This document shows positions 10,452 to 34,638 of a stretch of DNA of 64,000 bases, in pieces. Each line of letters begins with the position of its first letter. Position 1 is the stretch's first letter. Under the pieces are notes generated by a model. That model was not told the origin of the DNA. It was given only the letters and a program-made list of their open reading frames with translations, and did not search any database. The position numbers were made by a program, and so were the translations under genes. Source of the DNA: Escherichia coli (GTDB lineage: Bacteria > Pseudomonadota > Gammaproteobacteria > Enterobacterales > Enterobacteriaceae); NCBI RefSeq assembly GCF_003334785.1, contig NZ_QOWV01000001.1; one strand, 5' to 3'.

Positions 10452-10465
10452 AACAAAAAACCCAT
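10452..10465. repeat. Left copy of 14-bp direct repeat (putative attL core)
   Basis: aacaaaaaacccat, identical to 22039-22052; lies 16 bp after the rcdA stop. Confidence 0.55.
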
Positions 10466-10480
10466 TTATGTAAACGGGTT
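10453..10480 (-). terminator. Hairpin plus U-tract downstream of int, rebuilt at the attL junction
   Basis: Minus strand reads aacccgtttacataaatgggtt followed by ttttttgtt; about 9-bp stem with one G-U pair. Confidence 0.45.
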
Positions 10481-10484
10481 AATG

Positions 10485-10521
10485 AAAACAATAAGTTAGG
10501 TTAAAAACAATAAGTTAGGTT
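10485..10521. repeat. Tandem 18-bp direct repeat (2 copies, 19-bp period) between attL core and int
   Basis: aaaacaataagttaggtt at 10485-10502 and 10504-10521; candidate arm-type Int/accessory-factor binding sites. Confidence 0.5.
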
Positions 10522-10539
10522 GGTGGTCAGTGGTGGTTA

Positions 10540-11592
10540 TTACGGGGTAATGCCAACCGCTGCCGCCACTTTGTCGCCACTTGGCAGCGTTGCCAGAGGA
10601 TTGAAACGGAGCGCCGTTTCTAGATGATCCGGTGCCAGATGTGCGTAACGCATAGTCATTTTTATATCGTGGTGTCCGAGAATTTTTTGTAAGGCCAGAA
10701 TGTTTCCACCCGACATCATGAAGTGCGCCGCAAACGTATGGCGCAGAACGTGTGTGAGTTGACCGCGAGGGAGCACGATAGACGTTTTTTCCATCACGGA
10801 TAAAAATTGAAAATAGCAGTCTGTGAAGAAATTGAACCCATCAAGCGCCATGATCTCTTCGTAAAGCTCTTTACTGATAGGGATGCTTCTGTTTTTCTTC
10901 CCCTTCGTTCTGACAAAGGTAATTCGGTATTTGGTCACCTGTGAGCGGGTAAGATTTACGGCTTCACGCCAGCGTGCGCCTGTGCTTAAGCATATCTTAA
11001 CTACCAGTGCCAGAATTGGGTCCTGACGTTTGCAATCAGCCAGCAATTCAACAATCTGCTCATGGGTAAGCCATGCCATCTCTTTTTCTGCGATGGTGAA
11101 TTTTCGCATGTTCTCCAGTGGGTTCGGATACGACCATTCGCCCAGACGGGATAGTTCGCTAAAAACACTACTTAGATAGCTTTGCTCCAGGTTAATGGTG
11201 ACCGGGCTTGCTCCTTTCTTCCATTTCTCGCTGAAGTAGATCTCGCCTGTCAGGCGTTTATCTCGATAGTGGGCAAACATTTTAGAGGTGAGATCGGTTG
11301 CAAGAGGATTGCCCAGAGCGTCAACCATCAACAGCAATTTGTCATAGACATGCTGCCCAGCTGTCAGAGATTTACCATGTAGTTTGAACCATAGCTCAAC
11401 CACGTCTTTCAGTGTTCGACGATCCACTGATTCACCCAGCCAGGGCTTTGCTTCGGTTTCTTCCATCGTGTGGCGCTCAAAAGCCAGTGCTTCGCCTTTG
11501 GTGGCGAATTGTTTACGCACACGACGCCCACTTCGTCCGGCGGGGTAACATTCGCAAAGCCATTTCCCTGTGGTTAGTTTTCGTACTGCCAT
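10540..11592 (-). CDS. int: Phage tyrosine integrase
   Basis: 350-aa ORF; C-terminal catalytic region with RHTFAAH and HxxR...Y (LGHHDIKMTMRYAHL) typical of tyrosine recombinases; position next to the att repeat. Confidence 0.9.
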   Translation of the reverse strand: MAVRKLTTGKWLCECYPAGRSGRRVRKQFATKGEALAFERHTMEETEAKPWLGESVDRRTLKDVVELWFKLHGKSLTAGQHVYDKLLLMVDALGNPLATDLTSKMFAHYRDKRLTGEIYFSEKWKKGASPVTINLEQSYLSSVFSELSRLGEWSYPNPLENMRKFTIAEKEMAWLTHEQIVELLADCKRQDPILALVVKICLSTGARWREAVNLTRSQVTKYRITFVRTKGKKNRSIPISKELYEEIMALDGFNFFTDCYFQFLSVMEKTSIVLPRGQLTHVLRHTFAAHFMMSGGNILALQKILGHHDIKMTMRYAHLAPDHLETALRFNPLATLPSGDKVAAAVGITP

Positions 11593-11596
11593 AAAA

Positions 11597-11616
11597 AGCC
11601 CTCATATCAGAGGGCT
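11597..11616 (-). promoter_or_regulatory. Stem-loop immediately upstream of the int start codon; its 3' arm contains the int Shine-Dalgarno
   Basis: Minus strand reads AGCCCTC-TGATAT-GAGGGCT-TTTT-ATG(int); 7-bp GC-rich stem, with GAGGG 6 nt upstream of the ATG. Confidence 0.5.
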
Positions 11617-11674
11617 AAATTTAACTGTATATGTAACCAGTAATCAATGTGTGATTACTATGAAACATACATTG

Positions 11675-33906: not shown

Positions 33907-34638
33907 TTACTGTGGGAACCACTGGTCACTGATTTTTTGATAAGTACCGTCAGCTTTAATTGCTGCCAGCGCGTTATTCAGTTTTTCCAGCAGGGCTTTG
34001 TTATCCGGACGTACAGCGATGCCCAGGCCGGTGCCAAAATATTGCGGATCGGTCACTTTCTCAGTAGCAACACCAAGTTGTGGATTGGTTTTCAGCCATT
34101 CGTTTACCACCGCTGTGTCACCAAATACCCCATCAATACGACCATTTTTCAGATCGATAAAGGCATTCTGATAACTGTCATAAGAGACAGTTTTCACTTC
34201 CGGGTGCTGATCCTGAATATATTTCTGGTGCGTAGTACCGTTTTCCATCCCAATACGTTTGCCTTTCAGATCGGCAAACGTTTTGTAGGTATCTTTTTTG
34301 GCAATCACGACGGCTGAGTTTTCATAGTAGGGCGTGGTAAACGATACCTGTTTGCTACGCTCCGGGGTGATATCCATACCGGAGATTACGGCGTCATATT
34401 TTCTGAATTTCAGGGACGGGATCAGGCTGTCGAACGCGTGATTAGTAAAAGTACATTCTGCCTGCATTTGTTTGCACAAGGCTTTTGCCAGATCGATATC
34501 AAAGCCGACAATCTCATTATTAGCACCTATAGATTCAAAGGGTGGATAGGTGGCTGAAACGCCAAAATTGATTTTCTCTGCGGCAGAAGCACCGAAAGTA
34601 AAGGAAGCAAGTAAAGCGGCAAGAACTAACTTTTTCAT
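33907..34638 (-). CDS. artJ: Arginine ABC transporter periplasmic binding protein ArtJ
   Basis: ORF trimmed to MKKLVLAALLASFTFGASA (243 aa); paralogue of artI in this window. Confidence 0.9.
   Translation of the reverse strand: MKKLVLAALLASFTFGASAAEKINFGVSATYPPFESIGANNEIVGFDIDLAKALCKQMQAECTFTNHAFDSLIPSLKFRKYDAVISGMDITPERSKQVSFTTPYYENSAVVIAKKDTYKTFADLKGKRIGMENGTTHQKYIQDQHPEVKTVSYDSYQNAFIDLKNGRIDGVFGDTAVVNEWLKTNPQLGVATEKVTDPQYFGTGLGIAVRPDNKALLEKLNNALAAIKADGTYQKISDQWFPQ

Follow-up and report, generated by a model that had tools for sequence, protein, structure and literature searches.

How is the integrase gene of a 186-like prophage controlled when a defense gene sits between it and the repressor gene? 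In the textbook picture of phages 186 and P2, int is the distal gene of the repressor operon. We addressed this question at a locus in the window, by which we mean the whole stretch of 64,000 nucleotides (64 kb) of Escherichia coli DNA that was analyzed. The neighbors of the int gap are genes of a 186-like prophage whose insertion adjoins rcdA/ybjJ. On the minus strand, a repressor gene of the 186 CI family (cI, 13372–13968; 32% identity to 186 CI across 85% of its length) is followed by the cargo gene of the cI operon (11675–13351) and then by int (10540–11592), which encodes a 350-aa tyrosine integrase of the 186/P2 family ("phage integrase" in RefSeq). The 558-aa cargo protein is a PD-Lambda-1/SNIPE membrane nuclease (PADLOC, E = 2.4e-120; bioRxiv 10.1101/2025.11.03.685801), and RefSeq names its gene DUF4041/SNIPE-associated. 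On the plus strand, cII (14318–14827) encodes a 169-aa protein that is 70% identical to 186 CII without gaps, and an apl/cox-like gene is also present in the prophage. The cargo stop codon (TAG, 11677–11675) and the int ATG (11592–11590), both on the minus strand, leave 82 nt between them. The int start codon is supported by the N-terminus of the protein (MAVRK), which aligns with MTVRK of 186 Int.

As read from its sequence, this gap appears to be a compact control region that combines a CII site, a promoter with a LexA operator in it, and a hairpin in the RNA by which the int Shine-Dalgarno (SD) sequence would be hidden. The original prediction, made from the DNA letters of the window, had seen in the gap a dedicated point of control by which int is uncoupled from the cI-cargo operon, and our analysis supports this view; the LexA box in the spacer and the CII inverted repeat had both escaped it. 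The prophage in the window is an 11.7-kb deletion remnant, in which gpA is fused at position 18270 to distal tail genes and no Tum-like operon is left, so the circuit described below may be idle in this particular genome.

A possible promoter overlapping a palindrome had also been proposed within the gap, and this promoter is supported. Its -35 hexamer (TTGATT, 11647–11642) and -10 hexamer (TTAAAT, 11624–11619) lie on the minus strand with a spacer of 17 nt. This spacer is filled by the CTG-N10-CAG core of a LexA (SOS) box, TACTGGTTACATATACAGTT (11623–11642, minus strand), which has the form of the 20-bp palindrome TACTG-(TA)5-CAGTA. We scored the box with a position weight matrix (PWM) built from 28 canonical E. 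coli SOS boxes, a site list that reportedly goes back to the compilations of Lewis 1994 and Fernandez de Henestrosa 2000. When the matrix was run on phage 186, the annotated LexA site of p95 came out as the top match at its annotated coordinates (27.2 bits). The window box reaches 23.9 bits, within the range of proven sites (12.6–27.2 bits, median 20.5 bits). No other strong SOS box exists in the 64 kb, where the next-best 20-mer scores 9.7 bits, and a degenerate LexA pattern likewise matches the window once, against 0.07 matches expected.

The position of the box within the promoter is conserved. CTG-N10-CAG is retained in all 57 distinct leaders, around an interior that is variable and A/T-rich. 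In a scan of one genome per species, boxes of 15–27 bits that end 27–37 nt before the int start were found in ~15 genera, with Int proteins that share 54–100% identity (Escherichia, Klebsiella, Raoultella, Enterobacter, Citrobacter, Kluyvera, Silvania, Serratia, Yersinia, Buttiauxella, Pectobacterium, Rahnella, Winslowiella, Erwinia, Mixta, and Pantoea). In all classes of leader, the 16-nt core of the box fits the 16–17-nt spacer between a TTGACA-like -35, which is TTGACA or TTGACC in most relatives, and a TAAAAT-like -10, whose position right after the CAG is always kept. With TTGATT-17-TTAAAT, the window promoter matches 8 of the 12 consensus bases, and a generic promoter scanner makes no call there; the same scanner calls the orthologous promoters of an E. 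coli B prophage (TTGACA-17-AAAAAT, 10/12) and of Winslowiella (TTGATA-17-TATTTT, 9/12). An alternative -10, TAAATT (11618–11623, minus strand), would give a spacer of 18 nt. Other candidate promoters, with a -10 within the LexA box, in the region of the CII site, or on the opposite strand, were rejected for hexamers and spacings that are poor or not conserved.

Upstream of the LexA box, we identified an inverted repeat of the CII type. The GenBank record of 186 gives the CII-binding site of pE as ATGTTTG-N13-CAAACAT, and its half-sites are centered at -38 and -58 (PMC6593788). The window has this canonical pE site on the minus strand over the cII start codon (14318–14344), as in 186. A second site, ATGTATG-N12-CACACAT, lies before int on the same strand, with a promoter-distal half-site at 11666–11672 and a promoter-proximal half-site at 11647–11653 that has one mismatch to CAWACAT; the two are 19 bp apart, center to center. 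The pattern ATGTWTG-N11-14-CAHACAT occurs at these two places in the 64 kb, pE and int, against 0.02 occurrences expected. Among the 57 leaders with a LexA box, 56 have the CII repeat, 26 of them without a mismatch, and the proximal arm is always found 5–6 nt before the CTG of the box. The E. coli types have it as ATGTATG-N12-CATACAT, and others as ATGTTTG-N13-CAAACAT. Two complete relatives, ESSI2_ev040 and 813R9, have exactly two CII sites each, and the site before int in ESSI2_ev040 (ATGTTTG-N13-CAAACAT) has the half-sites and spacing of 186 pE. The CII protein of the window is presumed to activate both pE and the int promoter. The arms ATGTATG...CATACAT covary, and we considered them as an RNA hairpin or weak terminator; this was dropped in favor of 186 CII half-sites at a fixed spacing of 12–13 nt.

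The palindrome that the original prediction had singled out, GTAATCA-CACAT-TGATTAC (11640–11658, minus strand), is present, and a repeat search returns it with 8-nt arms (11639–11646 and 11652–11659). As an element in its own right it does not stand: it is a lineage-specific feature found in 3 of the 57 leader variants, all of them behind the same PD-Lambda-1 cargo gene. Judged by the elements that it covers, the palindrome is a chance overlap of free spacer, the promoter-proximal CII half-site, and the -35.

Where would transcription from this promoter start? Two independent rules point to position 11612 on the minus strand. The center of the proximal CII half-site (11650) plus 38 nt gives 11612; applied to 186, the same rule leads from 2035 to 2073, which is the end of the annotated pE feature. 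The end of the -10 plus 7 nt also gives 11612. Measured from the +1 predicted via the -10, the half-sites lie at about -58 and -38, with the distal center at about -57 to -58 and the proximal one at -38. The predicted start is the fifth base of the 5' arm of the hairpin described next, and both predictors place +1 within the 5' arm or the loop in every hairpin class (11 leader classes). For E. coli B/BL21, +1 is predicted ~7 nt past AAAAAT, near position 663,486 of NZ_CP083274.1.

The sequence and a repeat search (7 nt, 100% complementary) both recover the hairpin that had been predicted before the int ATG, along with its T-run. AGCCCTC-TGATAT-GAGGGCT (11597–11616, minus strand; -13.3 kcal/mol) has its 5' arm at 11616–11610, between the -10 and +1, its loop at 11609–11604, and its 3' arm at 11603–11597. 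The 3' arm holds the SD, GAGGG (11599–11603), 6 nt before the ATG, just as had been noted. A run of five Ts (11593–11597) that includes the last T of the arm forms both a terminator-like tail and the spacer between SD and ATG. The RNA folding suggested at that time was carried out, and both the region and the leader fold better than shuffled sequence: a 141-nt region folds at -37.1 kcal/mol (z = -3.42; 1 of 200 shuffles as good), and the 38-nt leader alone folds at -13.3 kcal/mol (z = -2.8; 2 of 200 shuffles). A terminator scan ranked this stem-loop with its T5 first (7 pairs, 5 of them GC, a loop of 6, tail TTTTATGG), in a 4.1-kb region where terminator-like matches are not rare (10 found versus 3.7 expected). 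A search of Rfam returned no family above its gathering threshold; the matches were sub-threshold look-alikes of sRNAs that the terminator-like stem brings about, with RyhB as the best (28.5 bits versus a gathering score of 55).

The stems of the relatives differ in length, register, and loop, so no honest single alignment can be made of them. We therefore folded the leaders class by class against shuffles and compared the two strands. Of the 14 leader classes, 11 fold by means of unrelated stems (z between -1.5 and -7.0), and 10 of these 11 fold better than all but 0–3 of 200 shuffles. The same folding with shuffles gave no hairpin in the other three, Erwinia, Mixta, and Pectobacterium. Examples of stems are AGCCCTC/GAGGGCT, GCTCTCY/GGAGGGC, AACCTCTC/GGGAGGTT, ATACCCCT/AGGGGTAT, AAACTCTCCTAAA/TTTAGGAGAGTTT, GTAGCCC/GGGCTAC, CCCCCTT/AAGGGGG, and CACATTCTC/GAGAATGTG. 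Hence, a hairpin that pairs with the int SD, as originally proposed for the window, is kept through complete replacement of the stem in 11 leader classes. In all 11, the stem has its 5' base no more than ~2 nt away from the -10, and in Kluyvera and ESSI2_ev040 the base is inside the -10. Because of G.U pairs in 9 of 14 variants, the int-sense strand is more stable than the antisense strand by 3.4–6.1 kcal/mol; the antisense strand is never meaningfully better among the 14 (largest difference, 0.9 kcal/mol). This asymmetry favors an RNA structure over a DNA palindrome. Within the two stem types that we call A and B, changes are one-sided only (C to U opposite G).

We then asked how far the hairpin would mask the SD in RNAs of different origin. 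In a modeled read-through RNA that starts 120 nt upstream, the probability that the SD core is unpaired is 0.00–0.04 in 7 of the 11 classes, the window included (0.00), and the SD is only partly masked in the remaining 4. In RNA from the predicted +1, this probability rises to 0.2–0.9. For the stem class of the window, the opening is sensitive to the exact start, at 0.09 from the position given by the rules, 0.39 from 1 nt further, and 0.46 from 2 nt further.

The proposal that the hairpin terminates transcription stood in part. The T-run is limited to stem types A and B (E. coli, Klebsiella, Raoultella, Enterobacter, Silvania, and Buttiauxella), and the type B stem, which E. coli B/BL21 has, extends into the A-tract/U-tract pairing typical of terminators. 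It is missing in eight stem classes (ESSI2_ev040, Citrobacter, Kluyvera, Serratia, Yersinia, Rahnella, Winslowiella, and Pantoea), whose stems reach the start codon or stop a few nt short of it. This distribution makes SD masking the common denominator and termination a lineage-specific addition.

To which gene does the module belong? In collections of phage and E. coli sequences, homology to the window usually sets in 0–25 nt past the cargo stop and runs into int, behind upstream genes that vary (DUF4041/SNIPE, an ATP-dependent nuclease, a P-loop NTPase, a second CI-like gene, and small ORFs). Eighty viral contigs with an essentially identical Int have 24 different 100-nt leaders behind many upstream genes. 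At least 20 unrelated families of upstream genes occur, and the distance from their stop to the int ATG is constant at ~74–91 nt. Of 5,426 complete E. coli genomes, ~1,100 match the int 5' region; those matches and loci that were sampled did have the leader. The exact locus of the window is also that of E. coli AR_0085 (NZ_CP029741). Altogether, the module is present in 57 distinct versions from ~15 enterobacterial genera. Judged across these leaders, it travels with int and not with the cargo, whatever gene lies upstream.

The original prediction had left it as a question whether related phages without the cargo gene share these elements, and one such phage does: ESSI2_ev040 has no cargo, and its 78-nt gap directly after cI contains a perfect CII site, TTGACA, a 23.7-bit LexA box, and a different SD hairpin. 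The comparison that had been proposed with the cI-int junction of 186 found no module there. In 186, cI and int overlap by one base (TAATG), and the junction has no LexA box and no second CII site; both elements are likewise missing from SopEPhi (1-nt gap before int), from a Yersinia phage (9-nt gap), and from K139-like, Aeromonas, and HP1 phages, whose cargo genes overlap int. Int relatives of 50–55% identity in which cI abuts int also lack the module. In the most distant carriers, int could not be read from a cI operon: in five distant relatives, the gene upstream is ogr-like (for an Ogr-like late activator) and not cI, and in Winslowiella and Mixta, int forms a transcription unit of its own, since a true terminator directly precedes the CII site. 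A 26-bit box also lies 15 nt before the ATG in a phage of Vibrio cyclitrophicus, where int has divergent neighbors. The module thus appears, on comparison of these loci, to be present wherever int is uncoupled from the repressor operon.

The LexA box of int is one of a pair in complete phages. ESSI2_ev040, the Klebsiella phage 4LV2017, and 813R9 each have exactly two strong SOS boxes, the second just after the replication gene, which is the position of 186 p95. In 813R9, this second box fronts a 62-aa ORF and a DinI-like gene that is homologous to the C-terminal half of 186 Tum (41% identity, E = 3e-24). The PWM scan of the 64-kb window found no second strong box (next best, 9.7 bits), because the prophage is a remnant without that region.

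We suggest that int is, on balance, probably expressed from a CII-activated and LexA-repressed promoter of its own (Pint), and that RNA reading through from cI and the cargo gene is either terminated or masked from translation. The early lytic transcript would supply CII, which would activate int after infection and again after derepression, a step that would be the 186-family counterpart of the CII-dependent pI of lambda. LexA bound in the spacer would shut Pint in an undamaged lysogen, and SOS would open it; in intact relatives, with a box before the Tum-like/DinI-like operon, DNA damage would give antirepressor and Int together. RNA from pL or pE that passes through cI and the cargo gene would have both arms of the hairpin, fold, bury the SD, and, in the lineage of the window, end at the T-run. 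RNA started at Pint would be without most of the 5' arm, and its SD would be more open. With these layers of CII, LexA, and fold-back, synthesis of Int would require either the presence of CII or the cleavage of LexA, and the constitutive lysogenic/cargo operon would yield none. The logic that joins CII and LexA may be OR, or CII may override partial repression by LexA. Spacer-bound LexA should block RNA polymerase, yet Int is needed in an undamaged infection, so the model assumes competition or leakiness. This CII-LexA logic is the weakest link of the model. The exact transcription start, on which the idea of an origin filter depends, is the second weak link.

Several other readings of the gap have to be weighed against this model, and two of them concern the hairpin. 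It might be a plain intrinsic terminator of the cI-cargo operon, with the SD overlap as a by-product of a short leader and without translational meaning. Seven base pairs (5 GC), a stability of -13.3 kcal/mol, and T5 are good features of a terminator, as is the A-tract/U-tract pairing of the type B stem; in a leader of ~30 nt, any hairpin would unavoidably overlap the SD, so the overlap alone is weak evidence for masking. However, eight stem classes have no T-run and stems that end at or near the start codon, ESSI2_ev040 keeps a hairpin over the SD with neither cargo nor T-run, and Winslowiella and Pantoea still have an SD hairpin with a true terminator upstream of the module. We consider this reading unlikely. 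It is quite unlikely, too, that the whole hairpin is part of the Pint mRNA, where it would constantly throttle the translation of Int or stabilize the message as a 5' stem-loop, with no discrimination by origin. That the start site is a predicted one counts for this explanation, as does the SD of the window class, which stays mostly paired (0.09) in RNA from the rule position; low Int translation is also said to be a theme in P2 (Yu et al. 1994). What speaks against it is the position of the stem, whose 5' base is no more than ~2 nt from the -10 in 11 classes: a sigma-70 start 6–8 nt past the -10 cannot include the full 5' arm, and the -38 rule of CII gives the same +1.

The other two readings leave CII and LexA without a role. 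In one, closest to the original prediction, the hairpin is a terminator and SD occluder, and the palindrome is the operator of the nearby promoter. Hairpin, T-run, and palindrome are indeed all there, and the palindrome overlaps the -35, but it is found in 3 of 57 variants, conservation lies in the CII repeat and the LexA box, and most stem classes have no T-run; we regard this reading as highly improbable. In the other, read-through from the cI operon is the sole source of int expression, and the CII-like repeat and LexA box are relics or look-alikes without function. The promoter hexamers of the window are weak, and the motifs are predicted binding sites, both of which would fit such a view. 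Yet both motifs are far above chance, their geometry is fixed over 57 variants and ~15 genera while the surrounding sequence turns over, and no operon that could supply read-through exists in relatives where a terminator or an ogr-like gene lies upstream, so that this explanation is hardly credible.

Taking Pint, the fold-back hairpin, and the second SOS box together, we tentatively propose a broader scheme, as a serious possibility that falls short of probable. In this scheme, which concerns P2/186-like phages of this integrase lineage, int would be an autonomous gene with two inputs, CII for establishment and LexA for induction, under a promoter that contains one arm of a hairpin masking the ribosome-binding site, and translation would depend on the origin of the transcript. 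Such an arrangement would let a highly expressed hotspot of defense cargo sit between cI and int without driving Int, and would form a two-gene phage SOS regulon together with the Tum-like operon.

How does this compare with known systems? The CII site before int resembles that of 186 pE in its 7-bp inverted half-sites, 19–20 bp from center to center, in their predicted placement at about -58/-38, and in the family of its activator. Unlike pE, the int module drives int and not cI, and it has a LexA operator in its spacer where pE has none; the basal strength of pE is negligible, whereas most relatives with the int module have a near-consensus -35. In 186 itself, int is without a promoter of its own, since cI and int overlap. 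Lambda solves integrase control with pI plus sib. Like pI, Pint would be a dedicated CII-dependent integrase promoter, from which Int is made when the activator of lysogeny is present, but the CII proteins and their sites are unrelated, and pI has no LexA input. Lambda tells the origins of its transcripts apart through the 3' sib site (retroregulation); in the int module, the proposed discriminating structure is at the 5' end.

Both 186 p95 (tum) and integron intI have, like Pint, a gammaproteobacterial SOS box that overlaps the promoter. The SOS input of 186 is at the antirepressor only, whereas here the box is at the integrase gene itself and is joined by a putative activator site. Integron integrases are an established case of a tyrosine recombinase under SOS control (PMC3108266). 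The fold-back has its closest likeness in IS10/Tn10, where the ribosome-binding site can pair with a complementary stretch located before the start of the element's own transcript, and only transcripts that enter from outside fold and are silenced. The int module differs in that it serves a phage integrase and not a transposase, that the 5' arm lies in the -10-to-+1 interval of a regulated promoter, that its transcription start is predicted, and that the stem in the window lineage also resembles an intrinsic terminator. In IS10 and IS3, translation signals are sequestered in secondary structure, according to PMC13181058, which cites Davis, Simons & Kleckner 1985.

Each component is thus of a known kind; the combination, and SOS/CII control of a P2/186-like int, are apparently undescribed. 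Our search of the full-text literature, outside which older subscription journals lie, returned no description of LexA- or CII-controlled int in P2/186-like phages, and the papers on defense hotspots in these phages make no mention of SOS/CII control of int.

If our model is true, a large branch of the 186/P2 phages, spanning E. coli as well as Klebsiella, Enterobacter, Citrobacter, Serratia, Yersinia, Rahnella, Erwinia, and Pantoea, has int under its own activator- and SOS-gated promoter. This would explain how defense genes such as SNIPE/PD-Lambda-1, Old, AbiU, and KAP NTPases can enter the slot between cI and int and replace one another there with recombination control undisturbed. It would also add a recombinase to the SOS-controlled genes of mobile elements, which bears on antibiotic-triggered prophage mobility. 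The module would, finally, be a compact natural part for synthetic biology, with two inputs in ~80 bp and insulation from read-through. Its best-consensus version is that of E. coli B/BL21, and the copy in the window, with poor hexamers and a mismatch in the proximal half-site, is its weakest.

The position between the cI repressor gene and the int module (the regulatory gap immediately 5' of int) is a hotspot for defence genes among the related loci L002-L147, in agreement with earlier descriptions (PMC9122126; bioRxiv 10.64898/2026.02.27.708500). In the window, this slot is filled by PD-Lambda-1, since renamed SNIPE (window 11675-13351, minus strand; PADLOC E = 2.4e-120), a membrane-bound nuclease that cuts phage DNA at injection (bioRxiv 10.1101/2025.11.03.685801). 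The cargo gene starts 20 nt past cI, so its expression is probably driven from the lysogenic operon. Across the same L002-L147 set, PADLOC identified a P2-type Old (E = 1e-233), two PDC-S20/KAP-type NTPases, AbiU, HEC-01A, and PD-Lambda-1 as slot occupants, while at least ten further families, several of them with transmembrane segments, had no PADLOC match.

The prophage that carries this cargo (window 10452-22152, ~11.7 kb) is a deletion remnant. Compared with Klebsiella phage 4LV2017, all head and lysis genes, most tail genes, and the Tum-like SOS operon are gone. The deletion junction, at 18269/18270, lies inside a fusion ORF (window 16969-20073, plus strand) in which the reading passes directly from mid-way through replication gene A into distal tail gene T sequence.

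Intact relatives retain a second SOS box after the replication gene. In phage 813R9 (L148 21175-21668), this box (at 21649; 23.9 bits) fronts a 62-aa ORF and a 77-aa DinI-like protein. The 62-aa ORF showed no similarity to Tum, the LexA-controlled antirepressor of phage 186, and the DinI-like protein matches 186 Tum in its C-terminal half only; the pair may represent an antirepressor that is either split or of an alternative type. At int itself, the box geometry of a Vibrio cyclitrophicus phage differs from that of the enterobacterial module: in the 1740-1803 region of L153, a 26-bit LexA box is enclosed by a short inverted repeat (AGCCT...AGGCT), with just 15 nt between the end of the box and the int ATG, and a clear CII-type repeat was not seen at this int.

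The gene upstream of the module also varies. In five relatives (L105, L107, L108, L112, and L115), from Pectobacterium, Rahnella, Pantoea, Winslowiella, and Erwinia hosts, an Ogr/B-type zinc-finger late activator of 90 aa takes the place of cI, on the same strand and ~170 nt upstream of int; in L112, where this was checked, a terminator follows the activator gene. The genomic placement of int is thus a different one in these five relatives. In one viral contig (L084, ~2900-2975), homology breaks off precisely where the LexA box begins on its left side, and G+C-rich sequence replaces the CII site and the -35 element, possibly marking a rearrangement or the end of an insertion. The start of the deposited int CDS of 4LV2017 (KY271398.1; 981 nt) lies ~70 nt 3' of the conserved ATG, which is the start given by RefSeq and the one that lines up with 186 Int, and was probably mis-called.

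A RyhB match over the leader (window 11590-11658, minus strand; 28.5 bits, E = 0.004) falls below the Rfam gathering score of 55 and is almost certainly a look-alike that owes its score to the stem and U-tract. Elsewhere in the window, a perfect palindrome, AACTGTC-TCTTAT-GACAGTT (window 34173-34192), has the form CTG-N10-CAG with a G/C-containing interior and scores 8.7 bits against our LexA matrix; the first 11 nt after its AA are similar to the Tn5 mosaic end.
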